Of a stretch of DNA of 64,000 nt, positions 5,074 through 57,404 are shown in pieces (the first letter of the stretch is position 1; every line of letters begins with the position of its first letter). The DNA lies in the NCBI RefSeq assembly GCF_038025025.1, contig NW_027117338.1:2480001-2544000 (forward strand), in the 5' to 3' direction. A model generated the notes under the pieces. It searched no databases. It worked only from the letters and a program-made list of their open reading frames with translations, and was not told the DNA's origin. A program made the translations under genes and the position numbers. The stretch comes from Phyllosticta citribraziliensis (lineage: Eukaryota).

Positions 5074-5865
5074 ATGTCTGAGCGCAAGGTCTTGACCAAG
5101 TACTACCCCCCCGACTTTGATCCCTCAAAGATCACTCGGACCCGCAAGCCCAAGGATGCCGGTCCCAAGTCCCAGACGGTCCGTCTCATGGCGCCATTCT
5201 CCATGAAGTGCGTGTCCTGTGGCGAGTTCATCTACAAAGGAAGAAAGTTCAACGCGCGCAAAGAGACGACCGACGAAAAGTACTACGCCATCCAAATCTT
5301 CCGCTTCTACATCCGCTGCACGAGATGCTCGTCGACAATCACATTCAAGACGGATCCCAAACACATGGACTACGAATGCGAACGCGGCGCCAAACGAAAC
5401 TTTGAGCCCTGGCGCGAGTCTAAATTGGCAGAGGAGACCGAAGAGGAGCGCCTCGACAGATTGGAACGTGAAGAGGCTGAACGGGACGCCATGGCTGAGC
5501 TGGAAACGAAGACCCTCGACGCCAAGACCGAGATGGCCATTGCCGATGCCCTGGACGAGATCAGGACGAGAAACGCGAGAATCGAAAGGGGCGAAGTTTC
5601 AGCAGAGGCGCTGGTGGCCCCCGATCCTCTGGAAGCGGAGCGGAAAAGGCAGGACGAAGAAGACGCAGAAGCTGCGAGGAAGGCATTCGAGACTTCGAGT
5701 GGCGAAAAGGTGCGCAGGTTGGACGATGAAGCATTTGTGGAAAGTTCAAAGCCGGTTGAGGAGCCGGCTGTCGCTATGCCGCCTCCGACGTTCAAGAGGA
5801 ACGTGAAGAAGAAGAAGGATCTCAGCTCGGCATTGGGTATCAAGAAGAAGTCATCTCTGGTGTGA
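5074..5865 (+). CDS. YJU2: Pre-mRNA splicing factor Yju2/Cwc16/Cwf16 (CCDC94 family), 263 aa, intronless
   Basis: Diagnostic N-terminus MSERKVLTKYYPPDFDPSKI, VRLMAPFSMKCVSCGEFIYKGRKFNARKE and CTRCSSTITFKTDPKHMDY (zinc knuckle), followed by a coiled coil. Confidence 0.96.
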   Translation: MSERKVLTKYYPPDFDPSKITRTRKPKDAGPKSQTVRLMAPFSMKCVSCGEFIYKGRKFNARKETTDEKYYAIQIFRFYIRCTRCSSTITFKTDPKHMDYECERGAKRNFEPWRESKLAEETEEERLDRLEREEAERDAMAELETKTLDAKTEMAIADALDEIRTRNARIERGEVSAEALVAPDPLEAERKRQDEEDAEAARKAFETSSGEKVRRLDDEAFVESSKPVEEPAVAMPPPTFKRNVKKKKDLSSALGIKKKSSLV

Positions 5866-11360: not shown

Positions 11361-13452
11361 CTATAGTCTCTCTTTAAATATTTCTTTTTTTTATAAGAAA
11401 AGGTAAATTTTCCTTTTTTCCTTTTATTAGAGTAGTACTAGGGGTATATAGATCTAAGTAAATATATAGTCCTAAAGAGTAGAATTCTACTATTCTAAAA
11501 ATATAATAATTTTAAAAATCTATCTATATTTAGTTAAATAATTAATAAGGGAAAAGGTTTCTCCTCCTTAAGTAGTATAAATTTTTCTATAGTAGATTAT
11601 ATAATATTATATATTAAAAAATCTAGAAAAATTTATAGATTATAAATATATAAAAATTTCTTAGATTATACTACTAGTTCTTCTACTATTAAGGCTAGAA
11701 GTTATAGTAGAAGTAAGTCTTAAGATAGATATTAGTTTTAGGTATATTAGCCTAGTATTAAGCCTAAAATAAGCTTAATAAGACTTTATATAAGTAGTTA
11801 TATAAATAACTAAGTAGAAGAAAAGTATAGGTGCTTATTTTTCTTTTTTTTAATAAATTTATTAAGATACTTCTCCTTAAATTCTTTAAGTAAATTCTAG
11901 GCTCCTATAAGGTTTTCCTCTAGTTCCTAGGAGTTCTTATTAGATAGATAGTCTAGCTATTTAATTAAGTATTTATAAGCTCCTTTATAGTATTTATAGT
12001 CTAGTATTTTTTCTACCTTATAATCTTTATCTACTAATAGAGAATCTTTAGCTTCTCTATTAATTATAAGAGGTATATTATCTAGATATTTTTCTAATAG
12101 TAATATATAGAATACTAGATATATAGGTAAGTCCTTAGATAGTTATAATTTATAGTTTAGACTTAAGACCTTTTTAATAATTTTAAAAGGTCCTACTTTT
12201 ATATAGTCTAATTTTTTAGAGGGTCATCTTATAGAGAGGTTTCTTTTTAATAAAAATACTTTATCCCCCTCTTTAAGGTTTAGTATATCCTTATACTATT
12301 AGTTATAATATTTAGCCATTTTATAAGAGATAAAATATATATCTTTAACTAAAGATTTATATAACTCCTTTAAATTATTAGATTTTATAATAGCATCTTA
12401 AGCTAACTTATTATAGAGTTTAGGTTTATTAAAGTAATTAGGCTTAAAGCTATAATTAGTATAAAATAGACTTATTCTAGTAGTTTCTATTATAGAGGAA
12501 TTATAAGTAAATTAAGCTAATAGTAATAGAGATACCTAATTATTTTATTAATAATTAGAGTATATCCTAAGATATTACTCTATTACTTAATTTATTCTTT
12601 CTATTTAACTATCTATTTATAGATAATAAGCTATAGATAATTTAGTTTTAGATCCTAGTTAATCTATAAGGGTTTACTAGAATTTAGATATAAATTTAGA
12701 ATCTCTATCTAAGATTATAGTCCTAGGTATTCTATATTAACTAACTATATACCTAAGGAAGGTATATACTAGTATCTTAATATTAGAATCTTCTTTATAA
12801 GATATAAAGTAAGAGAATTTAATTATCCTTTTAGTAATAATTAAAATACTATTAAATATATCTTTAGATCTAGGGACTTTAGAGCTAGATAGCTTAATTA
12901 TAAAGTCTAAAGCTATAGAATCCTATAGCTAGTTAGGTAGTTTAATAGGTTTAAGAGCTCTATAAGGTATATATCTAAAATATTTAGATTTAATATATTC
13001 TAGGTAACTTTTAAGGATATCTCTTAATCTTTTATATAAATCTAGTATATAAAAGTTCTAGCTAATCCTTTCTACTATTTTAGCTATTCCTTAGTATCTA
13101 TAGATAGGAGATTTATATATAGCCTTTATAAGAGTATTATACTATTTTTTAGGTATATAAAGTAGTCCCTAAAATATAATAGATCTATTATCTATTACTT
13201 TAATATCTAGATCCTTATTATTAGCGGCTAATAATAGTTCCTAAGCTATAGTATATTATGGCGCCTAGTAGAGCAAATTAATACTAACTACTAATAATTA
13301 ATAGGTAAGGAGTAAGAGTAGTTACTATAAAGCCTATATAGAAAGACTATCTACTCCTTATAGCTAATACTAACTATATATAGCTAGTATATAGGAGAAA
13401 GGTATTACTAAAACCTAAAAATACTAGAGGTATACTAGTATATATAATACTA

Positions 13453-16400: not shown

Positions 16401-18880
16401 TATATAGCTAAGGTCTTTAGGTTTAGTACTATCCTTTAGCTTAATCTTAAAGTCTATCTAAGGATAAGTATAGAGGAGTAGGTTATTATTATAGAATATA
16501 CCTAATAGGTTATAGTACTTATAGGGGATAGTATAATATAGATAAAGCTTATTACTACTAGCTAGGATATAAGTAGTTAGCTCTACTAAATAAAGTTTAG
16601 TATACTCTAGTTTATTAATAGGAGTAAATATATAGACTAAGTAGACTTTATAGCTATACTATTAATAAAGGATAGTAGTATTAAAGGTACTAATTAGAGT
16701 AATATTAGTTAAAGAGCTAGCCTAGCCCTAACTCTACTTATTAAGGTAACTTATAGTCTCCTTAATAGAAGTAGAACCTAGTTTAGATAGCCCTTAGTAC
16801 TAATAATAGTATCTTAGCTAATAGAGGTATTCTAAGGGATAAGGTTTAAGGTAGTAGAGGTATTATAGCTAGCTAACTTATTTAGAGCTAACTAAGAGGT
16901 ATAGTAAGGTTAGTAGTAGGATAGAGTTAAGAGGTTTACTATAATATAAGATCTTAACTAGAGTTATAGTAGTAGGTATAGATAGTAATAGTAGTAAGGT
17001 AGAAGCTAAGGATAACTAGCTATTATTCTAAGAAAAGGTTATCCTTATAGTTAGTATTAGTAGTACTAAGGTTAATATAGGGGAGTCTAAGGATAAAGAT
17101 AAAGTCTAAGATACTATAGTAGTAGGTAGTAAAGACTTAATTAGCCTATAGACTATTTAAGGTTTAACTAGTAGGATATCTCCTAACCTTAAGTAGTTCT
17201 AGTAAGTCTTTATAGACTTTACCCCTCTAATACTTATTACTATACACCCTAAGTCTAGGATGAATATAAACTAGTATATATAATCTAAGCTAATAAATAA
17301 ATTATATATAGGACTAATCTAGGTAATTATTAGAAAAGTAAGTAGATTAAATAATATAGTAGTACTATAATCTACTAAACTAAATAATAGGCTAGTAATA
17401 AGCTTATAAGTAAGGTATTAGGTCTAGCTATAGGTATAGTTACTAATTATCTAGGGCTTATATAGCTACTACTTCTAAGTACTAGTAGTAATAAGTTTAT
17501 ACTTAAGGGACTAACTTATATATAGGTATTATAGCGCCTAGTAGAGCGAGTTAATATAGACTACTAAAAATTAATAGGTAAGGAGTAAGAGTAGTTATTA
17601 TATAGTCTATATAGAATAACTATCTACTCTTAGGCTAACTAGAAATAGCTAGTATATATAGAAGAAGTAAATACTAAGTACTAGATACTATAAAATATAA
17701 GTAGTATATACTATATTATATAATACTACCCCCCCCCCCCCCCCCCCCCTCCTAGTAAGTAATATCCTTATTACTTAGTTATAGGTCTAACCTACTAGTA
17801 AGTAAAGGTTAGGGTATCTTTTATAATAGTATAAGATAATATTATATATATTATTAAACTTACTATTATTAGTATTATAGAATACCTAGTCTAGTAGGTA
17901 GTTAGTCTAGTTTACCCTAAACTAGAGTCTCCTATTAGCTAATATCTAGTAACTTATAATCTCCTCTACTTCCTAATTAGTATCTTTATTCTTATTAATA
18001 TTATCTTATAAGGCTAGGCTATTAGCTAGCTATTACCTAGGTAATAGATTATTACTAGTAATAATAAGGTATAAGATATTAAATTTATTATAGGTATATA
18101 ACCTAGTAGGCAGTTATAGTATAGCCTAGTTACTATATATATTAGTAACTTAATATAGACTATTATTATAAAAATTAAATATAGTAGGATAGCTATAGAG
18201 CATATATATATAATCTATATAGATATATATATATTTACCTAGTTTAATAATATAATCCTAATATTAGTAGTTAGCTTAAATAGCTATTTATTATTATATA
18301 ACTATAAGACTATACTTAGTCTTATCCTATACCTATTATATAGTATAGGTAATAGCTTATATAGTCTATAGTTATATAGAATAGGTATCTATAATTAGTC
18401 TATAGATACTATAAATAGTAGCTTTAGTATTAAAATTAAATTATAGCTTATAGCTTTAATAAATATAAAAGAGGGAGTAGCTATTAAGGCTCTTATATAA
18501 TATACTATTAGCTATAAACTAGGTAATAGATAGTAGTAGTTACTAATTATCTTAATAGAATCTAATAAACTATTTTAAGTAGTTCTTAAGGTCCTAATTA
18601 GCTTATTTAGTCTAGCTATTAGTCTAGGGATAATAGCTAGTAGATAGCTTTAGGCTAATACTAATAATATAAGCTAGGCCCTTCTATAGGTAAGAGATAA
18701 ACTAGTTACTATAGTCTAAGATAATAGAGAGAGGGAAATTATATATAGTAAAGATATAGTCTATAAATATATAAGCTATAGCTTTAGCTATAGTCCTATT
18801 ATTTATAGTATCTATAGTAATAAAGTAGTATACTTTACTAAAATAGTTATAAATAACTAGGATGGTATCTATACCCTTAC

Positions 18881-21800
18881 TATTATAATAGGCGTACACG
18901 CGCCTATACGAGCACTAGGGCCAGCACAGACAAACCCAGCATTACACGGTTATAGGAAGCACGAGCCTCACCTTAGGTAGCAGCCTACTACAGCTTAGGC
19001 TAAAACCTACAGGCTAGTACCAGCTACTATAGCCTAGCACCAGCCACTACAGCCTTAGGAAGATACCACGCAACAGCCCATTAATACCTCACCTTTATAA
19101 CTTACCTAATAATAACTAAGGACCCTTATATAAAGGATAAGAGGTAGAATAGTATAAAGGAAGGACTAGGAAACATATAGGTAGTAAGTATCTTTTATAT
19201 TTTATTCTTTTAACTTATTAGATTTAATTAAGATACATACATATTCCCTAGCAGTTTACCTTTAGCCCTTACCTATATAATAAGAAATCTGCAAGTTATA
19301 ATAGATATAAAAGATTATTCTAAGTTTTAGCTCTATCCTACTTCTTTACCTATAAAGGTATTATAATATTCAACCCAAGTAACATCATACGCAGCTATAG
19401 TCTTATATAAGACTACTTATTACTTTTCCCTGGCAAACCTAAGTTGTCTTTATTAGGCGCATTAGTATTATCTAAGGACCAAGGAGCATTAAGTATATAT
19501 TAACTATAGAAGTCTTTAGTTAAGGCTATAGGGCAGCATATAAATATTTAGGAGGCATCCCATCTATAACCTACTTAAGGGATATTCTAAGTAGAAGACT
19601 ATAAAGATAGTATAGCTAAGAATAAAGCCAATACGTCTAGCACTACTAAAGGTGTTAGTACTAGTTAATCAACCTAACAAGATTTGCGCGAAGGAACTAA
19701 AGATTTATATAATACTAGATACTTATTAAATAATAATAAGAGAGGACCTACCCCTATTCTCCTATATAATTTCTACTTAGTCCTAGTAGTAGAGGTAAAA
19801 GAACGTACCTAAGACCTAGGGTCAACTTATATAGTTTAAGCTCTAGTTATAGAGGTATTTATAAAGGTACCGCGCTCAGATATTAATTAATTTAAATCTA
19901 AGATTACATCCTTAAACAAGTCTTAAGTACAGCAGCAACTAAACTATATATAAAGGCAAAACTAGGCTCTTAAACAAATACTCTTAAACTATACTAATAG
20001 ACTTAGGGAAGTTCTAAGGGAAGGATATATTAGGCCCTCTTTATTAGCTTAGTACCTAAGACCTATTACCCTCTCTTAAGATCCTTCTACTAGTAGAGTT
20101 ATAAGGACTCTTAGACCTCCTCCTAACTATATAAGGGAAACCACTACTAAAACCTCTACTTTATCTTTAAGTAGTAAGAAATACTAAAGTAGTAAGGTTC
20201 CTAATCCTCCTCTTCTTACTAATAGAGAAGACCCCTTATATAAATACTAGACCCTCCTTATATAAAACAAAATTAAACAAAACCACGATCACTTTACTAA
20301 AGATATAGTAGAGGAGACTAAATAGAACATTACAGGTTATATTATTTTCTATATTAGTAGAGAAGTCTTATATTACCTAACTCCTTTCCTTACTTCTTAT
20401 ATAAAGGCCAATAAAGTTACTCTAGATAAGGATATCTTTAAATTCCTAGATAACCTCCTCTAGAGTCTATATAAATATAAGGATATAAAGAAGTAGTTAC
20501 GCTCTCTTATATACTACATCCCTATAGACCTTTAGAAGTTTTAATTAAACTTTATACGATTAGCCTTAGATATAGATCTTCCCTAGGAATAGTAGAAAGA
20601 GGACTTTTATAATATAATAGATCCTCTCCTTTAAACCCACATAGTTACTATAGAGTAAGATAGGGATGTTAACTTTTATAAGTACCTCTAATAAGCCTAC
20701 CCTATTACTTAAAGTCTTAGTAACTACTATTCTAACTATAGAAAACCAACGCTCACGTCGCGCGAGGAATAAGCAAAGAAGAGATAATAAGAATGAGTAA
20801 AGATAACTACCTTAGATAGTATAAGTACTTTATCTTCTAGTTATACCTAGGCGCGATCTATATCCAGGGCTCCCTTATATAATACAACCTGTAAAGGTAA
20901 AGTAGAAGTCTATATAGAGATTTAACTATATAATCACTGCGGCTAGTTTAGCTATTTATAGAGATAATACCCATAACCTAAGATAAAGGCAATAGAGTTA
21001 GTTAAAGAAGAAAGCACTAAAGATATCTATATAAATAAAGGAGATTAGTCTTTATTAGAAAATAATAAGGCCTAGGTAAAGTCTCCTACCTTAGGTCTAA
21101 ACTTAGAGTAATATATATTAAAGGTTCTTATATAAATCTTAGTCACTTCATTAGAGGTGTACCCTTTACTATATAAACCTTAATTATATCTAACAGCCGC
21201 GCCTTAGAAATTTGTGCCCTAGCTAATACTAGTACTAGTGGTATAAGTTTTATTTACCCTAAGCTACTACTAACTCTCTAGTCTATAGGTGCTATAAAAA
21301 AGAGAATAATAGGCGAAGGGCTTAATATTACTAGGTTTAACTAATACATAAATAAGAAAGTTAATTTTTACTTTTATCTTTAACTCTACTTCTAGGATTA
21401 AATAGTTTCTACTTATACTTTTATTTATAATATTAGCCATAACGACATAATTCTTAGGCAATAGTTTTTTAACTAGCACGATGTTCTTCTAGACTATAAA
21501 TAATATAAACTAGTCTAGAGACAGCTACTAGTTAACTAATCCTTTTAGTATCTTTTATACCTACTAAAAGTCTCTGTGCGAAGCAACAAACCGCAGAAAG
21601 AACATTAAGTAGATATAGACTATAGAGATAAAAACTTTAATAAACACCTTCTTCCCTTAGTACAGGTTATTAAGGGAATTAAATTTTAAACTTAAGATGC
21701 TTTTAAGCTTTCTATCTATAAAATACAAGTTGCGCTAATAGAGATCTATACTATTAACCTTATATAAGTTTAAGTAGCTCTTAAAGATAAAGAAACTAAG

Positions 21801-24800
21801 GAATTATTAGCTTCTAAGCTACTAGCTACTTATAAGGAATTTTAAGATGTATTTTCTAAAATAGAGTCTAACAAGCTACCACTATATCGCGTAGGGGTTA
21901 ATTATAAAATATCTCTTACACATAATAGTCTACTAGAGCTTCTACCTAGTCCTCTTTATAGAATGTCTCTAGAGCAGCTTAAGGCTATAAAAGAGTATAT
22001 CATTAAGAACCTTTAGAAAGGCTTTATTACTAAGAGCTTTACTGCCTATACTTCTCCTATTCTCATAGTAAAAAAGCCTGGTAGGGGATGGAGATTTTAT
22101 ATAGACTACTAATAGCTTAATAAATAAACTACTAAGGATTTATACCCCCTTCCTCTTATTATAGAGTTGCTTCAGCGCGTTAGAAAGGGTAAAATTTATA
22201 CTAAGCTTAATATTTAATAAGCTTTCCACCACATTTATCTTACTAAGGATTCTAAAGACAAGACTACCTTCTATATAAGATATAGCTTATTTAAATACCA
22301 TATCTTGCTATTTAGATTAAGCAACAGACCTACAGCCTTTTAATATTTTATTAACCAGGTTCTCTTTAAGTATTTAGATGATTTTATTATAGCTTTTATA
22401 GATGACATGCTTATTATCTCTAAAGACCCTATGGAGTATAAGGAATAAGTAAAAAAAGTACTAGTAAGACTATAAAAAGTAGGACTACAGGTAGATTTAA
22501 AGAAGAGCAAGTTTTTAGTTACTTATATAAAGTTCCTTAGATATATTATTTCTATAGAAGGCATTTAGATGGACCCAGATAAGGTGGAACCTATATAAAA
22601 CTAGCTAATACCTAAAACCCTTAAAGCTCTTTAATCCTTCCTAGGTTTCTATAATTTCTACCGACGATTTCTCCCTAACTATAGATAAATTAGCTAGCTA
22701 TTAGAGAAACTATGCTCTAAGGCAAAATGGCGACTACTAGGACCCCTAGAAGAGGAGGTAATTCAACAACTTAAGAAGCTAATATATAGTAATATACTTC
22801 TAGCCAACTATAACCCTACTCTTAACACTTATATAGAGACTAATATAAGTAATAGAGTTACTATAGGCGTTTTGATACAGCTCTAACAACCTTTATATAA
22901 TTAGAAACTAGTAGCGTTCTACTCTAAGGCAATGGCTGATGCAGAACTTCATTATAGAATATCTAATAAAGAACTACTAGCTATTAAGAATAGACTAGAA
23001 GAATAGAGACTAATACTTATTAGCCTTAAAAAACCTTTTCTTATAATAACAGACTATCAGGTATTAGAGTACTACTCTACTAAACAACAACTTAATTAAT
23101 AACAAGCTAGATAGTCTGAGTTTTTTATAGAGTTCCACATATAATTCTCCTATCAGCTAGGAAAGGAAAATATCATTACTAATTACCTTACTTAAAAATA
23201 AGAAGACCTAAAGACTTAAAAAGAAAAAGTAAAGGCTGTATAAGAGATATACCTTATCCTACTAGAGACTATTATCCCTCTTTCTATTTTAGAATAAAAA
23301 CTTCCTTCTCTAGTATTATTTTTAGATGAACTTCTCTGTATAAACTAAGAAGATTCTAAATTAGAACTCTAGAGATAGAAGGCCCTCTTAAAAGACCTTA
23401 AATAAAGAAATGGTTAGGAACTAAAGGATGGTCTTTTATTATAATACAGCACCCTCTTTATACTAGATCGTAATAACCTCCGCGCGAGAACGCTTAATAC
23501 TTTATATACTACCTATATAACTACCCATCCTAGTATTATAAAGATGCGAAAACTCCTTAAGTGATATTACTACTAGCTAGCTATAAATTATATAATTAAT
23601 ATTTACAGATAAGGATACCATATTTGCTGCTAAATAAAAGAGTTTTATAATAAAGACCTAGGCCTTCTATAACCCCTAGAGATTCCTACTTGACCCTGGT
23701 AACACTTAGCTATAGATTTTAAAGAGATGCCTAAAGACTAAAAAGGCTATAATACAATCCTAGTTATTATAGACTAGTTAAGTTAAAGAACCTTTAGCTT
23801 ACCTTATATAAAGAAGATCAATACTAAAGGAGTCTCTAGACTCTTTTATAAATATATCTACTATATTTATAGAAACCCTAAGTCTATCCTATCTGACTAA
23901 GGCCCTTAGTTCATCTTAGCGTTTATAAATAAACTATATAAGCTGACTAGTATAGAGTAGCATTTTAACTCATCCTACTACTCTTAAACTAATAGTATTA
24001 TAGAGATTATTAATCAGCATCTTATATAAAGATTAAGACCTTTTATTAATTACTTTTAGAATAATTAGTCTAATCTTCTACTATTAATAGACCTTATATA
24101 AGTAACACTTCCCTATAAAGCTACTAGACTTTTACCTTTTAAGATTAAGTTAGGATATTCCCCTTAAATATACTATAACTAGTAATAAAGAATAGAGACC
24201 CCCTAGCAACTAGAAAAGATGGCTTATATAGTAGTGTAAATACTATAAAAGAGAAGATAAGAAGCTTTTAAATTTATAAAGAATCTTATTCTTAAATCCT
24301 AAGAGTGTATATGCTAATAAGCCAATAAATACCGTCGCGCGCTAGACTTTATAGTTGGAGATTATATCTATATTAAGAAAACTAGATGGTCTACTAATTA
24401 GCTAAACCTTAAATTAGACTTCTCTAATACTGGACCTTTTAAGATTATAGGAATAGAAGGACCCTCCTATATCCTTAATCTTCCCTTATATATAAAGATG
24501 GTTAACCTTTTCTATACTAATAGGCTATATAAGGCCGAAATGGAACAGCTTCCTAGTTAGGAATATACTAAACCTAAACCTAAGATTATTTAAGATAAGC
24601 CTAAGTGGGAAGTAGACTATATTTAAGCTAGTTAAGTCTTATATAGGAAGCTTTAATACCAAGTTAAATAGACTAGATATAACTAAGATAACTAGTGGTA
24701 TAATATAAGTTCTTTTAGCGGCGCGCTGCAGAAAATTAAAGAATTCCACTTATTATACCCTATTATAGCAGGACCACTAAAAAATCTAGAAAAATAGAAG

Positions 24801-27120
24801 GCTGCCTTCCTCTAAGAAGAACTATAAATTAAAATAGAAAGTGATAATAAAACAAGTCACTTAGGCCTATAGTAAATATTATAAAGATATAGAAAGTAGA
24901 CTAATTAGTTTACTATCTACCCTTATATAAATACTATTAATCTTAACTTCTACTCTCTAGTCTCTCCTTTTTACTACTTATTCCCTACTATCCTCTTCTT
25001 TAATTTCTACCCTTTACTTCTTTCCTTTTCCCTTCTTCTTATTATAATAGTTATTATATAAGACCGTCTCTTCTAGATCCTCTAGCTTATTAGGTAGGAT
25101 GTCCTACTTAGCTAAAGCCTAATTAGTTTAATCCTCTAACCTAGCTTGGTAGTATAAGTTCTAGAACTCCTCTATATAAATTTTATCTTTATACCTCTTA
25201 TAATAAGTAGGCGGCTTGGCACCCTTTAAGTTACTTATAGTACAGTTAAGGTTACCTATACCCTAAAGGCAGTTAGTATAGCGGCCCTATAAGAAACTAG
25301 GTAGGTAGTAATAACTAATAAACGCGCGAGTGTTAGTATTGTTATAACACTTGGTGTAGCTAATAGGGTTGTTAATTCTAGTATACTAGATAAGAAAAGC
25401 ATCGCGCAAGCTGGCTTAAGTTTTAACTAATAAGTAGTTAAATTGCTAAGTAGAAACTATAATATATAAGTAAGGTATGCTGTCACCTAAGGCCAAGATG
25501 CGCTTAGCGCACTCTTGCGCTTTAGAACTACTAAGGTGTGCCTATATAGTTAGTTAGATAAGAATCCCTTATATTAGCAAGATAAACTTACTTATATAAT
25601 ACTCTCTATATTCTTATAAGGGATATAAAGCATTAACTTAAAGTCCTACTTGATAGGTACCTTATTAGAGCTAACTGGCAATGCCGTAATATGAATCTTA
25701 CTGTTGCTGCTGTTATATAAAGTAGCAGGTAGTAAGTACTTAGCTACTAGAACCTAATAAGCTATAGGATTATAATAATGGCGTATATAAGTAGGCTCTT
25801 TACCTTCTTCCTCTAAAATAGGCTGTGTGATAGTAAACTAGTAGTAATGTGGCATAATGGGCTGGTTAGTAGTAGGCTGTATAGCTGTAGATGATGAACC
25901 TTATATAATAACTAATAATACTAATTGAGTAGAACCTGATACTGTAGTATGCTATAGGTAAAGTAATAAGCCTGTAGCTGTTCCTAGCTAAATAAGTAAA
26001 GCCTGGCCTAACTAAGTCTTTATATAAGTGTCCTCCTCTATAATTATATTGGTTAGTAAGACGGGACGACGAAGTAGTAAAACCTAGATATATAATACTA
26101 CTTAATAGCCTAGATAATAATTAGTAATAGTTAGAGATAGAATTAAAGTTCACTTACCTTAGGACTCTATATAATAGTCCTTATAGATACTACTAGCTAA
26201 AATAGCTCTCTAAGTGAGCAGTAACTATAACGGATCGTGAATGATGCCGCGTAATAATAACTTAATGCTATAACTCTTATATAATAGTAATGAGTCCTAA
26301 TAGACCAGACTATAATAAGTAGTAGATGTATTAAGTATATAGTGGCTAGGAATGTCTACTTTACTATTAGTAGGGTATAAATTATTTAAATTATTAGAAC
26401 CTTCGCGCGCGACAGTTAGTTTACTAGATCATGGCTAAATTAGACTGGGATAATAATATACTTTAATAGGGAGCTTTAGATATAGCTAAGTAAGATGGCG
26501 ACCTTCTATAGGTTATATAGTAAAAGAGATGGTAATAGAAAGAGATGGTATAGTAGTAGACCTAGACTAATAATTATACTATATATATAGAATGCTTAAA
26601 TTACTAAATCACTACTATTATGCATTATAAGTCTGCGCCTATATAAGCGCCTATAGCTGCTAATTCCTATGATTTCAGCTTCTCTTTAGGGGGGGCATAT
26701 CATAATAGGTGTACACATGCCTATATAAGTACTAGGGCCAGTATAGATAAACCTAGTGTTATATAGTTATAGGAAGCACGAGCCTCACCTTAGGTAGCAG
26801 CCTACTATAGCTCAGGCTAAAACCCACAGGCTAGCACCAGCTACTATAGCCTGGCACCAGCCACTATAGCCTTAGGAAGATACCATATAATAGCCTATTA
26901 ATACCTTACCTTTATAACTTACCTAATAATGACTAAGGACCCTTATATAAAGGATGAGAGGTAGAATAGTATAAAGGAAGGACTAGGAAATATATAGGTA
27001 GTAAGTATCTTTTATATTTTATTCTTTTAACTTATTAGATTTAATTAAGATATATACGCATTCTCTAGCAGTTTGCCTTTAGCCCTCACCTGTGTAATGA
27101 GAAATCTGCGAGTCGTGACA
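18881..27120 (+). mobile_element. Gypsy-B copy 1: full-length chromovirus, 8240 bp, 423-bp LTRs, TSD CTTAC, inserted in Gypsy-E integrase
   Basis: LTRs 18881-19303 and 26698-27120 (ending GTGACA); CTTAC at 18876-18880 and 27121-27125; PPT AGGGGGGG at 26688-26695. Gag CCHC ~20929-20970, protease ALADTGA ~21216, RT FIDDML ~22395, RNase H ETDAS ~22836, integrase GPF ~24432, chromodomain EWEVDHI ~24603. Confidence 0.97.
24870..26480 (-). pseudogene. Antisense accessory gene of Gypsy-B1: intron-containing, 6-Cys DUF3716-like domain
   Basis: Two-copy consensus reads ASSRDAFLIQ.TG..NP..CTKCRDN.NTRAF..CRHLP.F..GRCANCL.GTGN.DCT (~25415-25235). Minus-strand introns at 25591-25542 (GTAAGT..CTAAC..TAG) and 26157-26110 (GTAAGT..TACTAAT..TAG). 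Gene ends are approximate. Confidence 0.75.
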
Positions 27121-30100
27121 CTTACTATATAGTAGTAGGCTAATAAAGTCTATAGTAATATACTACTATAGCTATAATAGGATAGATAGTAGTTATAGCT
27201 AGCCTAAAATAGCTAGATAGGCCTTATAGATATATATATAGGTTATATAATTATCTATAACTTAGGATATAAGTAAGATAAGGTAAGGAAACTAAAATTA
27301 TAGTACTAGAAGGTTATATAGCTAAGTTTAGCTAGGGTAGCTAGTAAGTAGCTATTTATAGATATAATATATAAGGAGTAGCTAGAGTTTAGTAGGTATA
27401 ATAAGGTAGCTATCTATAAAGATATTCTACTACCTATTAATAGTAAATAGTAAGTCTAGCTTACTAGTATAATACCTCTAATTATTTATCTTAGTATTAT
27501 CTATAGTATTAGCTATAAGTAATTAATAGAGTATAAATATATTATTATTACTATTATTATTATTTATTAGGGCTAGCTCCTAGTCCTTATATATACTAGC
27601 TAAGAGCTTATTAGCTAGAAGTAGGGTCTAGTATTATATTTATTATTAGGGGTTATTAGTAGTAGGGGTATCCTAAGGATAGTAAGTAAGTATATTAGCC
27701 TTAATATTAGTATAGCTAGGGTAATATATAATCTTAAAGTCATATTTTAAGAGGAGTTTAGCCTAGTAGGCTTAATAATAAGTTAGCTATTTAGTTATAG
27801 TAAAGTACTATAATATCTAGTAATCTATAAATACTATAAATAGTATCTAGTAGGTCTTAAGATTAGGCTTTTATAACTCTAAGGTATAAATAATAGCTAG
27901 GAGCTCCTTATTATAGATAGTATAGTTAAGCTTAGCTAGTACTATAGTTTTAGAGTAGTATATAATAGGGTAAAGCTATTACTTATTATTATACTAGGAG
28001 AGAAAGCCCCTATTAGTCTAATTAGATAAGTCTATTTCTATAACTATCTTATAAGCTAGGTTAAAGTAGGTAAGGACTAGTACTATTATAAGGGTATACT
28101 TAAGACTATTAAATAACTATTATTTAGTATAGGTCTACTACTAATTAGTACCCTTATATATTAGCTATATTAGTAGCCTAGTAGTCTTACTATAGTCCTT
28201 AATAAATTACTAATAGAAATTAGTAGTACTAAGAAAGGACTAGACCTATTTTACTATTATAGGCTATTTCTAAGATATAATTATATTAATTTTAGAGGGA
28301 TCTATATAAATACTATTAGTAGAGATAATAATACCTAAAAACTAAGTTTCCTAGATATAGAACTTATACTTATTAATATTAACTTATAAACTATATTTCT
28401 ATAGATAAGTAAGGACCTCTCTAATATATTATTAGTAATCTATAAGTATTTAGCTATAAATAAGGATATTATTAAGATATATAGTAGTATACTTACTAAG
28501 ATAGTAGAATAGGTACTTATTAATTAGCTATTACTAGGTACTAGGGCTATTAGCTATACTAAAAGGTATAACTAAGTACTTATAGGTACTATAGTAGGTC
28601 TAGAATATAAGTAGGTCCTTAGTCTACTTATCTATAATATATATTTAGTAGAAAGCCTATTTAATATTAAGCTTAGTAATATACTTAGTACCTCTTATCT
28701 AGCTAATTATCTTATCTAGTAATAGGAGGGGATAGTAATCCTTCTTTATAAGTTTATTAAGCTTATAATAATTAATTTAGAAATAAATACTACTATTAGG
28801 CTTAGCTACTAGTAAAATAGGTAATACTATACCTACCTTACTAGGCTCTAATATACTAAGATTAATACCCTCCTAGATATACTACTTAATCTTAGCTAAC
28901 TAGATATTATTAGTATACTAGAGTAGTATATACCTAAGGTCTTTAAGTTTAGTACTATCTTTTAGTTCTATATAGAAGTTAGTCTATAGATAGGTATAAG
29001 GGAGTAGGTTAGTATTATAGAAAGTATCTAAGAGGTTATAATACTTATAAGGGATAGTATAATATAAGTAAGGCTTATTACTACTAGTACTAAAAGCTTA
29101 TAGGATAGGCTCTAATAAATAAAGTTTAGTATACTTTAAGTTATTAATAGGAGTAAAGGTATAGATAGAATAGGCCTTAATACTAAGCTATTATTAGAGT
29201 AGGACTATATTAAAAGCTATAATTAGTACTATATTAGCTAATAAGCTTACCTAGGAATAACTCTACTTATTAAGCTAACTTATAGTCTCCTTAATAATAG
29301 AAATATCCTTAGGTACTTAGTAGTAGTATTATAATTAAGAGAGCTCTCTTAGTAGGCCTATCTTATAATATATTAACTAGTACAGCTAGCTAACTTACTT
29401 AGTACTAACTTATAGGGGAGAGATTATTAGGTTATTATTAAGAGGTTAGCTATAATATAAGATCTTAATAGGAGTTATAGTAGTAGGCTATAGTAGGGAT
29501 AAGGTAGTATTATTTATAGATAGTAATAGTAGTAAGGGATAGTTATTAGATAACTAGCTATTAGTCTAGGGGAGAGTTATAGTTATAGTTATAGGTAGTA
29601 GTATACTAGCTATAGATATAGGTAGGTAGACTATACTAGACTATAATACCTAAGATAATATTTAAGTAGATAGTAAGGATTTAATTAGCTTAGAGGCTAC
29701 CTAAGGCTAAACTAAAATATTCTAAGATTTAGCTAAAAAATTATCTCTTAAATTAGTACTATACTAATATAACCTATCTAACTTTACTCTACTAATCTTT
29801 AATAATATATAGCCTAGATCTAGTATAAAACTAAACTAGTATATATACTCTAAGCTAATAAATAAATTATATAAAAGACTAATCTAGGTAATTATTATAG
29901 AAGCCTATAAATTAAAAAGTATAGAATCCTTCCTATATTCTAAGCTAAATAATAACCTAGTAATAAGCTTATAGGTAAGATATTAGGTCTAGCTATATAT
30001 ATAGTTACTAATTATCTAGGGCTTATATAACTATTACTTCTAAGTACTAGTAGTAATAAGTTTACTCTTAAGGGACTAGCTTATATATAGGCTACTAGTA

Positions 30101-46218: not shown

Positions 46219-46641
46219 TATTATAATAGGCGTACACGCGCCTATATAAGTACTAGGGCCAGCACAGATGAACCTAGCATTATATAGTTATAGGAAGCAC
46301 AAGCCTCACCTTAGGCAGCAGCCCGCCATAGCTTAGGCCGAAACCCGCAGGCTAGCACCAGCTACTATAGCCTGGCACTAGCCACTACAGCCTTAGGAAG
46401 ATACCATATAACAGCCCATTAATACCTTACCTTTATAACTTACCTAATAATGACTAAGGACCCTTATATAAAGGATAAGAGGTAGAATGGTATAAAGGAA
46501 GGACTAGGAAATATATAGGTAGTAAGTATCTTTTATATTTTATTCTTTTAACTTATTAGATTTAATTAAGACACATATATATTCTCTAGCAGTTTGCCTT
46601 TAGCCCTTACCTATATAATAAGAAATCTACGAGTCGTGACA
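46219..46641 (+). mobile_element. Solo LTR of family B (423 bp) inside Gypsy-D integrase, no TSD
   Basis: Colinear with the B LTRs and ending GTCGTGACA. The flanks ATAGT and GTATC do not match. Confidence 0.95.
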
Positions 46642-48794: not shown

Positions 48795-49172
48795 AATACT
48801 ATTTTTCTATTTAGGCTTTAGAATCTAGGTCCCTAACTAAAGATTACTATTTCTTCTACTTAGTACTTAAGAGGCTTTAGATCCTATATTATATAACTAA
48901 AGCTCTTAGTTTTAGGTACCTATTAGCTTAGGATCTATCTAGGGGACTTACTTCTATCTAATAGAAGATACTCTATATTACTTTCTCTTATACTAATAAT
49001 TCCCTTACTCTTCTACCTAAGTGTTTACTTTTTCTTATTAGGATAGTAGGAATGTAGCAGGATACTTATATTAACTTTTAGCTACTATACTAATAACTAG
49101 TCGCGCGCGCGCTTATTAGTACTATAGGTAACCCCCTTATAAGCGCCTTCCTTAGTAGGCCCCCCCTACTTA

Positions 49173-52100
49173 TATCATAATAGGCGTACACGCGCCTATA
49201 TAAGTACTAGGGCCAGCATGGATAAACCTAGCGTCGTATAGTTATAAGAAGTACAAGCCTCACCTTAGGTAGCAGCCTGCTATAGCTTAGGCTGAAACCT
49301 GCAGGCTGGTACTAGCTACTACAGCCTGGCACTAGCTACTATAGCCCTAGGCAGATACTATATAACAGCCTATTAACACCTTACCTTTATAACTTACCTA
49401 ATAATAACTAAGGACCCTTATATAAAGGATAAGAGGTAGAATAGTATAAAGGAAGGACTAGGAAATATATAGGTAGTAAGTATCTTTTATATTTTATTCT
49501 TTTAACTTATTAGATTTAATTAAGATATATATATATTTTCTAGTAGTTTACCTTTAGCCCTTACCTATATAATAAGAAATCTGCAAGTTGTAATAGATAT
49601 AAAAGATTATTCTAAGTTTTAGCTCTATCCTACTTCTTCACCTATAAAGGTATTATAATATTTGACCTAAGTAACGTTATGCGCAGCTATAGTCTTATAT
49701 AAGACTGCTTATTACTTTTCCCTAGTAAACCTAAGTTGTCTTTATTAGGCGCATTAGTGTTATCTAAGGACTAAGGAGTATTAAGTATATATTAACTATA
49801 GAAGTCTTTAGTTAAGGCTATAGGGCAGTATATAAACGTCTAGGAGGCGTCCTATCTATAACCTGCTTAAGGGACATTCTAAGTAGAAGACTGTAAAGAC
49901 AGTATAGCTAAGAATAAAGCTGATGCATCTGGTACTACTAAAGGTGTTAGTACTAGTTAATTAACCTAATAAGATTCGCGCGAAGGAACTAAAGATTTGC
50001 GCAATACTAGATACTTATTAAATAATAATAAGAGAGGACCTACCCCTATTCTCCTATATAATTTCTACTTAGTCCTAGTAGTAGAGGTAAAAGAACGTAC
50101 CTAAGACCTAGGGTTAACTTATACAGTTTAAGCTCTAGTTATAGAGGTATTTATAAAGGTACCGCGCTTAGATATTAATTAATTTAAATCTAAGATTGCA
50201 TCCTTAAACAAGTCTTAAGTATAGCAGCAACTAAACCGCGCGTAAAGGCAAAACTGGGCTCTTAAGTAAATACTCTTAAACTATACTAATAGACTTAGGG
50301 AAGTTCTAAGGGAAGGATATATTAGGCCCTCTTTATTAGCTTAGCACCTAAGACCTATTACCCTCTCTCTAGATCCTTCTACTAGTAGAGTTATAAGGAC
50401 TCTTAGACCTCCTCCTAACTATATAAGGGAAACTACTACTAAAACCTCTACTTTATCTTTAAGTAGTAAGAAATACTAAAGTAGTAAGGTTCCTAATCCT
50501 CCTCTTCTTACTAATAGAGAAGACCCCTTATATAAATACTAGACCCTCCTTATATAAAATAAAATTAAATAAAACCACGATCACTTTACTAAAGATATAG
50601 TAGAGGAGACTAAATAGAATATTATAGGTTATATTATTTCCTATATTAGTAGAGAAGTCTTATATCACCTAACTCCTTTCCTTACTTCTTATATAAAGGC
50701 TAATAAAGTCACTCTAGATAAGGACATCTTTAAATTCCTAGATAACCTCCTCTAAAGTCTATATAAATATAAGGATATAAAGAAGTAGTTACGCTCTCTT
50801 ATATACTACATCCCTATAGACCTTTAGAAGTTTTAATTAAACTTTATATAATTGGCCTTAGATGTAGATCTTCCCTAGGAATAGTAGAAAGAGGACTTTT
50901 ATAATATAATAGATCCTCTCCTTTAAACCTATATAGTTACTATAGAGCAAGATAGGGATGTCAACTTTTATAAGTACCTCTAACAAGCCTACCCTATTAC
51001 TTAAAGTCTTAGTAACTACTATTCTAACCATAGAAAACCAACGCTCACGTCGCATAAGGAATAAGTAAAGAAGAGATAATAAGAATAAGTAAAGATAACT
51101 ACCTTAGGTAGTATAAGTGCTTTATCTTCTAGTTATACCTAGGCGCGATCTATATCTAGGGCTCCCTCACACAATATAACCTATAAAGGCAAAGCAGAAG
51201 TCTATATAGAGATTAGACCGTATAATTGCTGCAGCTAGTTTAACTATTTATAGAGACAATACCTATAACTAGAGATAAAGGTAATAGAGTTAGTTAAAGA
51301 AGAAAGCACTAAAGATATCTATATAAATAAAGGAGATCAGTCTTTATTAGAAAATAATAAGACCTAGGTAAAGTCTCCTACTATAGGTCTAAACTTAGAG
51401 CAATACACATTAAGGGTTCTTATATAAATCTTAGTTACTTTATTAGAGGTGTACCCTTTACTATACAAACCTTAATTATATCTAATAGCCGCGCCTTAGA
51501 AATTCGTGCCCTAGCTAATACTAGTACTAGTAGTATAAGTTTTATTTACCCTAAGCTACTACCAACTCTCTAGTCTATAGGTGCTATAAAAAAGAGAATA
51601 ATAGGTAAAGGGCTTAATATTACTAGGTTTAACTAATATATAAATAAGAAAGTTAATTTTTACTTTTATCTTTAACTCTACTTCTAGGATTAAATAGTTT
51701 CTACTTATACTTTTATTTATAATATTGGCCGCAACAACATGATTCTTAGGTAATAGTTTTTTAACTAGCACAATGTTCTTCTAGACTATAAACAATGCAA
51801 ACTAGTCTAGAGATAGCTACTAGTTAACTAATCCTTTTAGCATCTTTTATACCTACTAAAAGTCTCTATATAAAGCAACAAACTGTAGAAAGAACATTAA
51901 GTAGATATAGACTATAGAGATAAAAACTTTAATAAACGCCTTCTTCCCTTAGTATAGGTTATTAAGGGAATTAAATTTTAAACTTAAAATGCTTTTAAGC
52001 TTTCTATCTATAAAATACAAGTTGTACTAATAGAGATCTATACTATTAACCTTATATAAGTTTAAGCGGCTCTTAAAGATAAAGAAACTAAGGAATTATT

Positions 52101-55100
52101 AGCTTCTAAGCTACTAGCTACTTATAAGGAATTTTAAGATGTGTTTTCTAAAATAGAGTCTAATAAGCTACTACTATATCGCGCGGGAGTTAATTATAAA
52201 ATATCTCTTACACATAATAGTCTACTAGAGCTTCTGCCTAGCCCTCTCTATAGAATGTCTCTAGAGTAGCTTAAGGCTGTAAAAGAGTATATTATTAAGA
52301 ATATTTAGAAAGGCTTTATTATAGAGAGCTTTACTACCTATACTTCTCCTATTCTTATAGTAAAAAAGCCTAGTAGGGGATGGAGATTCTATATAGACTA
52401 CTAATAGCTTAATAAATAAACTACTAAGGATTTGCACCCCCTCCCTCTTATTATAGAGTTACTTTAGCGCGTTAGAAAGGGCAAGATTTATACTAAGCTT
52501 AATATTTAATAAGCTTTCTACTACATTCGTCTTACTAAGGATTCTAAAGACAAAACCACCTTCTATACAAGATATAGGTTATTTAAATACTATGTCTTAC
52601 TATTTAGATTAAGTAATAGACCTGCAGCCTTTTAACATTTCATCAACTAGGTTCTCTTTAAGTATTTAGATGATTTTATTATAGCTTTTATAGATAACAT
52701 GCTCATTATCTCTAAAAACCCTATAGAGCATGAGGAACAAGTAAAAAAAGTACTAGTAAGACTATAAAAAGCAGGACTATAGGTAGATTTAAAGAAGAGT
52801 AAGTTTTTAGTTACTTATATAAAGTTTCTTAGATACATCGTTTCTATAGAAGGCATTTAAATAGACCTAGATAAGGTAGAACCTGTATAAAACTAGCTAA
52901 TACTAAAAACCCTTAAAGCTCTTTAATCCTTCCTAGGTTTCTATAATTTCTACTAATAATTTCTCCCTAACTATAGATAAATTAGCTAGCTATTAGAGAA
53001 ACTATACTCTAAGGCAAAATAGCGACAACTAGGACCCCTAGAAGAAGAGGCAATTTAATAACTTAAGAAGCTAATATATAGTAATACACTCCTAGCTAAT
53101 TATAACCCTACTCTTAACACTTACATAGAGACTAATACAAGTAATAGAGTTACTACTAGCGTTTTAATGCAGCTCTAGCAACCTTTACGCAATTAGAAAC
53201 TAGTAGCGTTCTACTCTAAGGTAATAGTAGATGCAGAACTTCATTATAGAATTTTAGATAAAGAACTACTAGCTATTAAGAATAGACTAGAAGAATAGAG
53301 ACTAATACTTATTAGCCTTAAAAAACCTTTTCTTATAATTATAGACTATTAGGTATTAGAGTACTACTCTACTAAATAATAACTTAATTAATAACAAGCT
53401 AGATAGTCTAAGTTTTTTATAGAGTTCTATATACGATTCTCCTATTAACTAGGAAAGGAAAATATCATTACTAATTGCCTTACTTAAAAATAAGAAGACC
53501 TAAAGACTTAAAAAGAAAAGGTAAGGGCCATATAAGAGATGTGCCTTATCCTACTAGAGACTATTATCCCTCTTTTTATTTTAGAATAAGAACTTCCTCC
53601 TCTAGTATTATTTTTAGATAAACTCCTCTATATAAACTAGGAAGATTCTAAATTAGAACTCTAGAGATAGAAAGCCCTCTTAAAGGACCTTAAATAAAGA
53701 AATAGTTAGGAACTAAAGGATGGTCTTTTACTATAATATGGTATACTCTTTATACTAGATCGCGATAACCTCTATATGAGAATGCTTAATGCTTTATATA
53801 CTACCTATATAACTGCCTATTCTAGTATTATAAAGATGCGAAAACTCCTTAAGTAATATTACTATTAGCTAGCTATAAATCGCACGATTAATATTTATGG
53901 GTGAGGATGCTATATTTACTACTAAATAAAGGAGTTTTATAATAAAGACCTAGGCCTTCTATAACTACTAGAGATTCCTACTTGACCCTAGTAACACTTA
54001 GCTATAGATTTTAAAGAGATGCCTAAGGACTAAAAAGGCTATAATATAATTCTAGTTATTATAGACTAGTTAAGTTAAAGAACCTTTAGCTTACCTTATA
54101 TAAAGAAGATTAATACTAAAGGAGTCTCTAGGCTTTTTTATAAATATATCTACTATATTTATAGAAACCCTAAGTCTATCCTATCTAACTGAGGCCCTTA
54201 GTTCATCTCAGCGTTTATAAATAAACTATATAAGCTGACTAGTATAGAGTAGTATTTTAACTTATCCTACTACTCTTAAACTAATAGTATTATAGAGATT
54301 GTTAATCAGCATCTTATATAAAGATTAAGACCTTTTATTAATTACTTTTAGAATGATTAGTCTAATCTTCTACTATTAATAGACCTTATATAAGTAACAC
54401 TTCCTATAAAGCTACTAGACTTTTACCTTTTAAGATTAAGTTAGGATATTCCCCTTAATTGCACTATAACTAGTAATAAAGAACTAAAACCCCCTAGTAA
54501 CTAGAGAAAATAGCTTGCATGGTAGTATAAATGCTATAAAAGAGAAGATAAGAAGCTTTTAAATTTATAAAGAATCTTATTCTTAAATCCTAAGAGCATA
54601 TGTACTAATAAGCTAATAAATACTATCGCGCGCTAGACTTTATAGTTAGAGATTATATCTATATTAAGAAAATAGGATGGTCTACTAATTAGCTAAACCT
54701 TAAATTAGACTTTCCTAATACTAGACCTTTTAAGATTATAGGAATAGAAGGACCCTCCTATATCCTTAATCTTCCCTTATATATAAAGATAGTTAACCTT
54801 TTCTATACTAATAGGCTATATAAGGCCGAAATGGAACAGCTTCCTAGTTAGGAATATACTAAACCTAAACCTAAGATTATTTAAGATGAGCCTAAGTAGG
54901 AAGTAGACTATATTTAAGCTAGTTAAGTCTTATATAGGAAGCTTTAATACTAAGTTAAATAGACTAGATATAACTAAGATGACTAGTAGTATAATATAAG
55001 TTCTTTTAGTAGTACACTATAGAAAATTAAAGAATTCCACTTATTACACCCTACTATAGTAGGACTACTAAAAAATCTAGAAAAATAGAAAACTGCCTTC

Positions 55101-57404
55101 CTTTAAGAAGAACCCTAAATTAAAAGAGAAAGTAATAATAAAATAAGTTACTTAGGCCTATAGTGAATATTATAAAGATATAGAAAGTAGACTAATTAGT
55201 TTACTATCTACCCTTATATAAATACTATTAATCTTAACTCCTACTCTCTAGTCTCTCCTTTTTATTACTTATTTCCTACTATCCCTTCCTTTACTTCCTT
55301 CCTTTTCCCTTCTTCTTATTATAACTATTATTATATAAGATAGTCTCCTCTAGATCCTCTAGCTTATTAGGTAGGATGTCCTACTTAGCTAAAGCCTAAT
55401 TAGTTTAATCCTCTACTCTAGCTTAATAGTATAAGTTCTAGAACTCCTCTATATAAATTTTATCTTTACACCTCTTATAATAAGCAGGCAGCTTGGCACC
55501 CTTTAAGTTACTAATAGTGCAGTCTAAGTTGCCTGTACCTTAAAGGCAGTTGGCATAGCGGCCCTATAAGAAACTAGGTAGGTGGCGATAACTAATAAAT
55601 ATATAAGTATTAGTATTGTCGCGACACTTAGTACAGCTAATAGGGTTATTAATTCTAGTGTACTAGATAAGAAAAGCATCGCGCGAGCTGGCTTAAGTTT
55701 TAACTAATAAGTAGTTAAATTATTAAGTAGAAACTATAATATATAAGTAAGGCATGCTATTACCTAAGGCTAAGATATATTTAGCGCGCTCTTATACTTT
55801 AGAACTACTAAGGTATACCTATATAGTTAGTTAGATAAGAATCCCTTATATTAGTAAGATAAACTTACTCGCGCGACACTCTCTATATTTTTATAAGGAA
55901 TATAAAGTATCAACTTAAAGTCCTACTTAATAGGCGCCTTATTAGAGCTAACTAGTAATGCTGTAACGCGAATCTCACTATCACTGCTATTATATAAAGT
56001 AGCAGGCAGTAAGTACTTAGCTGCTAGAACCTAACAAGCCGCAGGATTATAATAATAGTATATATAAGTAGGCTCTTTACCTTCTTCCTCTAAAACAGGC
56101 TGCGCGACAGCGAACCGGCAGTAATGCAGCATAATATACTAGTTAGTAGCAGGCTGTATAGCTGTAGATAATGAACCTCGCGCGATAACTAATAATACTA
56201 ATTAAGTAGAACCTAATACTATAGTATGCTATAGGTAAAGTAATAAGCCTATAGCTATTCCTAGCTAAATAAGTAAAGCCTAGCCTAATTAAGTCTTTAT
56301 ATAAGTATCCTCCTCTATAATTATATCAGTTAGTAAGACGGGACGATAAAGTAGTAAAACCTAGATATATAATGCCACTTATTGGCCTAGATAATAATTA
56401 GTAACAGTCTAAAGAGATAGAATTAAAGTTTACTTATCTTAGAACTCTATATAATAGTCCTTATAGATACTACTAGCTAAAACAGCTCTCTAAGTAAGCG
56501 GCGACTATGATAGATCGCGAATAATACCGCATAATAATAACTTAATACTATAACTCTTATATAATAGTAATAAGTCCTAATAGACTAGACCACAATAAGT
56601 AGTAGATGCATTAAGCATATAGTGGCTAGGAATATCTACTTTACTATTAGTAGGGTACAAATTATTTAAATTATTAGAACCTTTACGCACGATAGTTAGT
56701 TTACTAGATTATAGCTAAATTAGACTAGGGTAACAACGTACTTTAATAGGGAGCTTTAGATATAGCTAAGTAAGATAGTAACCTTCTATAGGTCGCGCGG
56801 TAAAAGAGATAGTAATAGAAAGAGATAGTATAGTAGTAGACCTAGACTAATAATTATACTTTATAACTATATAGAATACTTAAATTACTAAATTACTACT
56901 ATTATATATTACGAGTCTATACCTATATAAGCGCCTATAGCTACTAATTCCTACAATTTCAGCTTCTCTTTAGGGGGGGCATGTTATAATAGGCGTATAT
57001 ATACCTATATAAGTACTAGGGCTAGTACAGACAAACCTAGTATCGTGCAGTTATAAGAAGCACAAGCCTTACCTTAGGCAGTAGCCCGCTGCAGCTTAGG
57101 CTAAAACCTATAGGCTAGTACCAGCTACTACAGCCTAGTACCAGCCACTACAGCCCTAGGTAGATACTATATAACAGCCTATTAACACCTCACCTTTACA
57201 ACTTACCTAATGATAACCAAGGACCCTTATATAAAGGATAAGAGGTAGAACAGTATAAAGGAAGGACTAGGAAATATATAGGTAGTAAGTATCTTTTATA
57301 TTTCATTCTTTTAACTTATTAGATTTAATTAAGACACATATATATTCTCTAGCAGTTTGCCTTTAGCCCTCACCTATATAATAAGAAATCTACGAGTCGT
57401 GACA
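49173..57404 (+). mobile_element. Gypsy-B copy 2: full-length, 8232 bp, TSD ACTTA, inserted in the 3' LTR of Gypsy-D
   Basis: LTRs 49173-49595 and 56982-57404; ACTTA at 49168-49172 and 57405-57409. Colinear with 18881-27120 throughout. Confidence 0.97.
55170..56770 (-). pseudogene. Antisense accessory gene of Gypsy-B2 (paralogue of 24870-26480)
   Basis: Retains TGT ACT AAG TGT CGC GAC, GCC AAC TGC and GAC TGC codons on the minus strand (~55640-55515). The first intron is conserved at ~55868-55819. Confidence 0.75.

Follow-up and report, generated by a model that had tools for sequence, protein, structure and literature searches.

A retrotransposon family with an extra region behind pol

The window analyzed here is a stretch of 64,000 nucleotides from Phyllosticta citribraziliensis (contig NW_027117338.1, positions 2,480,001 to 2,544,000; positions below count from its first base); it is GC-rich at either end and has a GC content of 24-31% between about 6 and 62 kb. 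It contains two full elements and five long terminal repeat (LTR) copies of a Ty3/gypsy chromovirus that we call family B, the LTR being about 423 bp long. Both full elements carry an extra region between pol and the polypurine tract (Table 1). We consider it moderately probable that this region of 1.8 kb is an accessory gene, antisense to pol and coding for a DUF3716-like cysteine domain, that was destroyed by repeat-induced point mutation (RIP). Both copies of family B in the window are dead.

Copy 1 is flanked by the 5-bp target duplication CTTAC (18876-18880 and 27121-27125) and copy 2 by ACTTA (49168-49172 and 57405-57409). Because these duplications differ, the two copies represent separate integrations and not a segmental duplication. 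The LTR ends are of the TG..CA type, with TG changed to TA in most of them. Plus frame 3, translated through its stops, matched RVT_1 (E 1.7e-18) and two RNase H families in Pfam, and the integrase core (rve, 21.4 bits against a cut-off of 32.6) and SH3_Tf2-1 (18.4 bits against 30) were recovered below their thresholds. The chromodomain-like text at approximately 24600-24720 agrees with the consensus of 16 intact relatives and is legible by eye, yet it gave no Pfam match at E up to 1, which indicates that profile searches badly under-call domains in RIP-mutated DNA. The closest protein relatives of pol are fungal Ty3/gypsy polyproteins with at most 38% identity, many with a Chromo domain, and those with a named source come from Aspergillus, Rasamsonia, and Curvularia. 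Since the end of the chromodomain and the polypurine tract could both be located, the gap of about 1.8 kb between them is real; it is present in both full copies, as the original prediction had it.

The two copies of the extra region are 88% identical over 2,035 aligned columns, and 217 of the 227 substitutions are transitions. When the element is taken as a whole, the C-to-T differences comprise 224 at CpA, 76 at CpG, 36 at CpT, and 21 at CpC, so that CpA accounts for 224 of 357; the G-to-A differences comprise 161 at TpG, 84 at CpG, 35 at ApG, and 11 at GpG, with TpG at 161 of 291. This is the pattern of RIP, with a preference for CpA/TpG. RIP acting on CAA, CAG, and TGG codons produces stops, and the Cys codons TGY contain TpG and are therefore also RIP targets, which become TAY (Tyr). 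At several places (26404-26413, 25782-25783, 26231-26251, and others) one copy has CGCGCG runs where the other copy, or contigs from other organisms, has TATATA, and these contrasts point to strong RIP at CpG too, beyond CpA.

Within the window the extra region occurs in the two full copies of family B only, and both have it. In public DNA, parts of the stretch were found in nine runs from six studies, all of them without an RNA entry in their records, and we compared four runs labeled as four other organisms. The region was present in all four, with 29, 25, 24, and 8 of 30 bins covered, and the differences were again mostly transitions. The contigs from these runs are pieces of DNA of 100-340 nt; among them we found no unmutated or long copy of the region and no joint at the intron-like motifs described below. 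An exact 29-base stretch of the window had no match in the metagenome collection. A 14-base stretch of copy 1 (24996-25009) is missing in copy 2 and in one run's contig, and this indel is thus common to copies under different organism labels. The presence of the region in both full copies, whose target duplications differ, supports it as an integral part of the transposing element. It goes with the family wherever the family was seen, and it is always mutated.

Table 1 Features of family B in the window and of the antisense gene in locus L009 (L009 positions are those of that locus)
Feature	Position	Strand	Description
Family B copy 1	18881-27120	+	Ty3/gypsy chromovirus; 5' LTR 18881-19303, 3' LTR 26698-27120
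Family B copy 2	49173-57404	+	Ty3/gypsy chromovirus
pol, copy 1	22068-24720	+	Reverse transcriptase, RNase H, integrase core, SH3_Tf2-1, chromodomain-like end; RIP damage throughout
Extra region, copy 1	24900-26687		Between pol and polypurine tract
Polypurine tract, copy 1	26688-26695	+	AGGGGGGG; abuts 3' LTR
Putative domain exon, copy 1	25014-25541	-	176 codons to TAA after Lys/Gly-rich tail; 9 internal TAA/TAG
Six-position Cys/Tyr motif, copy 1	25242-25358	-	Reads Y,C,Y,Y,C,C
Six-position Cys/Tyr motif, copy 2	55635-55519	-	Reads C,C,Y,Y,C,C
DUF3716-matching stretch, copy 2	55513-55650	-	Sub-threshold Pfam match (see text)
Intron-like motif A	25542-25591 (copy 2: 55819-55868)	-	50 nt; GTAAGT, CTAACTAAC, TAG
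Intron-like motif B	26110-26157 (copy 2: 56387-56437)	-	48 nt (copy 2: 51 nt, starts ATAAGT)
Upstream "exons" 2 and 1 of the original prediction	25592-26479	-	No family match
ATG kept in copy 2	55753-55755	-	ATA in copy 1 (25476-25478); in frame about 40 codons before Cys motif
Antisense gene of L009	L009:4400-5400	-	Between pol and LTR; ATG at 5319, TATA-like box

A cysteine motif with DUF3716 likeness on the minus strand

The best-kept part of the extra region is a six-position motif with the spacing C-x2-C-x11-C-x10-C-x2-C-x8-C, preceded by the text A-F-L-I-stop-Y-T-R. The original prediction had read six Cys on this strand with a middle spacer of nine. The pattern is indeed there with several Cys kept, but the spacer is ten residues, and both copies have TAT (Tyr) at positions 3 and 4. 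True Cys stand at three of the six positions in copy 1 and at four in copy 2. At position 1 the codons are TAC in one copy and TGT in the other, which suggests TGC as the ancestral codon; positions 3 and 4 would presumably have been Cys in the ancestor. A further Cys/Tyr pair lies 16 residues past position 6. When all six frames of the window were searched with either Cys or Tyr allowed at each position, 11 matches were obtained, and those with at least three true Cys were the two copies of this locus only. By comparison, 30 Markov-shuffled sequences gave a mean of 0.03 motifs with at least three true Cys.

A 73-residue tile around the motif of copy 2 matched DUF3716 (PF12511) and no other among 24,736 Pfam families (E 0.048). 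The score of 14 bits is 64% of the 22-bit gathering cut-off, and residues 15-60 of the tile align to profile positions 10-58 of 59, spanning the Cys core. As a control, 100 tiles of that size were taken from the AT-rich part; DUF3716 matched none of them, and one gave a true match, to SH3_Tf2-1 of another element. True pol domains of family B reach just 61-66% of their cut-offs or vanish, so the DUF3716 shortfall may itself be RIP damage. Six read-through frames of about 537 residues each gave no Pfam match, and a PDB sequence search with the window tile returned only chance-level rows (E 0.55 and E 3). With the motif and the DUF3716 match on the minus strand and pol on the plus strand, the domain is antisense to pol as originally proposed.

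The Zn2Cys6 cluster of fungal transcription factors (Zn_clus) also has six Cys in two CxxC...C halves, with the spacing C-x2-C-x6-C-x5-12-C-x2-C-x6-8-C. This identity was rejected: the first spacer is 11 residues here rather than 6, and there was no Zn_clus match at E up to 10. DUF3716 is itself described as widespread in fungi in the text available from PMC8232023. The fungal occurrence of the family is consistent with a host that has a RIP signature and with pol relatives that, where named, are fungal. We call the domain DUF3716-like, and claim likeness rather than membership of the family. The resemblance suggested by the original prediction thus holds for copy 2, where it covers nearly the whole profile with no competing family, but at a sub-threshold score and with copy 1 unmatched.

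An intact relative and known antisense accessory genes

Using an alignment of 16 intact pol proteins, we retrieved 80 metagenomic loci, of which 35 had LTR pairs by self-BLAST criteria (some of these pairs lie at contig ends and are possibly assembly overlaps). The distance from pol to the 3' LTR is at most 314 nt in 27 of these 35 relatives and more than 700 nt in the other 8. A strict six-Cys search over the 812,681 bases of the relatives gave no match, and a looser one gave two sites, in loci L009 and L056.

L009 is an intact element of 49% GC with a pol frame of 1,397 codons. Its Cys site lies on the antisense strand, approximately 800 nt past pol, within a gene that has three introns (51, 52, and 46 nt) with GTAAGY, CTRAC, and YAG signals; this gene is 221 codons long once spliced, compared with a stop at codon 96 if left unspliced. 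The gene ends about 100 nt from the pol stop in a tail-to-tail arrangement, with gag further on. The predicted protein has seven Cys and the motif C-x2-C-x10-C-x9-C-x2-C-x6-C, which begins about 35-40 codons in; a Glu/Leu-rich stretch and a basic patch come after it. L009 and family B thus share the tail-to-tail place of an antisense six-position Cys stretch and intron-like motifs of the GTAAGY..CTRAC..YAG kind, in L009 beside an intact pol, but the positions of the L009 introns differ from those of the motifs in family B. The pol of L009 is 33% identical to that of family B, no closer than other loci.

A single-sequence AlphaFold model of the L009 protein had a mean pLDDT of 40.4 and was too poor for use, and a PDB sequence search with the protein returned no rows. 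Its look-alikes in the protein atlas are hypothetical clusters from Ascomycota (0.86-0.89). A family first appears in a cluster at only 0.78, in which 28% of members have DUF3716; we treat this as a lead and not as evidence. L009 is an intact example of the proposed architecture within this group of elements; homology to the family B domain is not thereby shown. The L009 gene is the best live model for an antisense Cys-rich gene of this kind.

Antisense accessory genes in this place are already known as a kind. Boty-like (BcGypsy1) elements of Botrytis cinerea and Sclerotinia carry an additional antisense gene, brtn (PMC7264820, PMC8365987, PMC4227169), the report of which these sources, in the portions available, credit to Zhao et al. 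2011, Virology 417:248. Like family B, Boty is described there as a fungal Ty3/gypsy element with a chromodomain and with the extra gene between pol and the 3' LTR, antisense to gag-pol. The likeness is one of position and orientation by description, and the copies here, unlike Boty, are RIP-dead. Together with intact L009, brtn in Boty (PMC7264820, PMC8365987) argues for an accessory gene in the extra region of family B.

Plant elements such as Grande1, RIRE2, Retand, and PvRetro13 form the aORF-3R class, with antisense open reading frames in the same place and orientation. Such frames occur in the majority of copies of a family and are suspected of a regulatory or nuclear role, in plant hosts and with unrelated proteins; the excerpts of this source describe no such cysteine domain (PMC7264820). 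In family B, the domain (25242-25358) lies between the end of pol at about 24900 and the tract starting at 26688, the strand of the motif and of the DUF3716 match is opposite to that of pol, and the region is in both full copies and, in parts, in all four compared runs. Neither copy retains an open reading frame, which makes the family B gene a fossil rather than a live member of such a class.

A DUF3716-type gene as the cargo of a fungal mobile element also has a precedent: the class II transposon REP9 of Zymoseptoria tritici carries two, REP9-1 and REP9-2, according to the part of PMC8232023 consulted. As a DNA transposon whose transposase is integrase-like, REP9 differs from the carrier here, which is an LTR retrotransposon with a sub-threshold domain match. 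A Neurospora DUF3716 protein is cited in one passage of PMC10776026 as a binder of telomeric sequence. None of the DUF3716/PF12511 literature that we searched was on retrotransposons.

REP9 is relevant as well to the possibility that the region is a passenger, that is, a DUF3716 gene of the host or part of some other mobile element that was captured once and has no role in the life cycle of family B. DUF3716 genes are common in fungal genomes and occur in REP9 (PMC8232023, in the text available), and most relatives of family B have no such region, both of which would suit a passenger. The region was nevertheless kept through at least two separate integrations and is found in runs of four other organism labels, and its orientation and tail-to-tail place are those of known antisense accessory genes, as outlined in PMC7264820. 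We consider a passenger quite improbable.

Proposed exons and introns, and what the protein would do

The original prediction joined the Cys domain to two upstream exons through two introns of 50 and 48 nt. Both GTAAGT/branch-site/TAG motifs are present in copy 1 where they were placed, and removal of the 50-nt motif A joins the upstream frame, which reads EEEGKEP...ESVAR in copy 2, in phase with the frame of the Cys domain. The length of motif B is divisible by three in both copies. The pattern GTAAGT..CTAAC..TAG has 10 matches in the window, compared with 3.0 expected; at least as many were seen in 2 of 100 shuffles, so that by itself the motif count is borderline evidence. One intron-like motif lies on the plus strand inside the extra region, at 56009-56058 and in copy 2 only, which illustrates that chance alone can produce them in DNA of this kind.

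The three-exon model itself was not supported. The upstream segments match no Pfam family, stop density and codon score do not tell the proposed frame from noise, and a two-copy consensus of the spliced model that prefers C and G retains 23 stops in 464 codons, which does not give the continuous spliced reading frame expected of it. All stops in the domain exon are TAA or TAG, 10 in 184 codons of copy 1 and 15 in 184 of copy 2. In copy 1 the stop density of the proposed frames is 5.4-5.8%, compared with 5.6% in pol, and the neighboring minus frame is similar. What holds of the spliced antisense gene first proposed is its position, strand, and motif, and its presence in both insertions, to which L009 and brtn add precedent.

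A single-exon gene fits the data equally well as the three-exon model. It would be short, about 155 codons, running from the ATG at 55755-55753 to the TAA after the basic tail, and the intron-like motifs and upstream "exons" would be chance features of AT-rich RIP DNA or an untranslated leader. The ATG of copy 2 and the ATA of copy 1 differ in the manner of RIP, in frame some 40 codons ahead of the motif, and the Cys motif of L009 begins at a like distance from its start. The absence of a family match or clear coding signal upstream suits a single exon too, as do three other distinct intron-like sites in the window, the plus-strand one of copy 2 among them. On the other hand, two motifs on one strand within 1.6 kb is far above the rate of three other sites in about 124 kb of strand, removal of motif A brings two frames into phase, and the L009 gene has three such introns. 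We regard the single-exon gene as a possible but somewhat unlikely alternative.

Several results weigh against an antisense, DUF3716-like accessory gene in either form. With 27 of the 35 LTR-paired relatives having no room for it, such a gene is not typical of the clade as a whole. The L009 gene has no detectable sequence similarity to the window domain, and its protein had no Pfam match. The proposed frame is no better than the neighboring minus frame, which has 12 stops in 183 codons in each copy and, over the domain exon of copy 2, a lower stop density than the proposed one. A codon score trained on pol chose the right frame for an unrelated element and for the pol of copy 2, but in the extra region it put the proposed frame on top in three of six segment tests and gave a non-coding LTR an equally high value. 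The Tyr at motif positions 3 and 4 is a common residue in RIP-mutated translations. The DUF3716 score of copy 2 is below the cut-off and the copy 1 tile had no match at all, and among the 100 control tiles two had spurious hits in other families (E 0.024 and E 0.033); since these are of like strength, the E-value alone is not decisive. When 1.84 billion proteins were searched by HMMER with a profile of both copies, the two matches obtained were artefacts of repeat proteins, and word-based protein searches with the window translation (near and longer lengths) gave none.

The E-value and its spurious counterparts, the lack of protein relatives in these searches, and the failure of stop density and codon score to separate the proposed frame from non-coding DNA would also suit a locus that was never a gene, with the Cys/Tyr pattern, the weak DUF3716 match, and the intron motifs being coincidence in a spacer made rich in Tyr and stops by RIP. 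Coincidence would then have had to hit a fungus-specific cysteine family over almost its whole profile, at a motif with at least three true Cys that the window has only at this locus, the shuffled mean being 0.03. The 1.8-kb spacer is itself unusual beside the 27 of 35 relatives with at most 314 nt, and Boty and L009 provide precedents. Pure coincidence seems to us quite unlikely.

The reading that we prefer is therefore that of an accessory gene that the retrotransposon carried, read opposite to gag-pol and tail-to-tail with pol. Its best-kept part would be a small domain with six, perhaps seven, Cys in two CxxC...C halves, probably holding zinc, and this would be followed by a Glu/Leu-rich stretch and then a basic tail. 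As the gene is antisense to the genomic RNA, any introns would not be spliced from that RNA and would survive retrotransposition. We infer introns, expression, and a function for the gene when alive, and its protein was most likely a nuclear nucleic-acid-binding factor serving the element. It is conjecture that the promoter was in the 3' LTR, that the domain bound zinc, and that the protein had an anti-silencing role.

Antisense accessory genes of LTR retrotransposons have been reported in plants and in Boty with function unknown, and a named cysteine family would give a testable biochemical handle, namely zinc and nucleic-acid binding. It would also connect an orphan domain that is common in fungi with two classes of mobile elements. 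The assignment of DUF3716 to such a gene, if confirmed, would be new as far as our searches show. A broader idea, which we offer as speculation and think unlikely, is that DUF3716 is by origin an accessory domain of mobile elements. Fungal chromoviruses (family B and perhaps also L009 and Boty) and DNA transposons (REP9) would each have their own DUF3716-type zinc-cluster nucleic-acid-binding protein, expressed antisense from the 3' end in the retrotransposons so that introns survive. The protein would guide the transcription or targeting of the element or help it to evade silencing. Many of the orphan DUF3716 genes in Ascomycota would then be domesticated or decayed cargo. The window copies are dead and thus not directly testable; the intact L009 gene is the usable lead.

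Elsewhere in the window, a solo LTR of family B lies at 46219-46635, with no matching 5-bp duplication readable at its ends. Upstream in copy 1, the codon score places gag (19600-20400) in a plus frame other than that of pol, which would imply a gag-pol frameshift. Another retroelement family is represented on the minus strand at 12002-12220 by an SH3_Tf2-1 integrase domain in good condition (E 2.5e-8).

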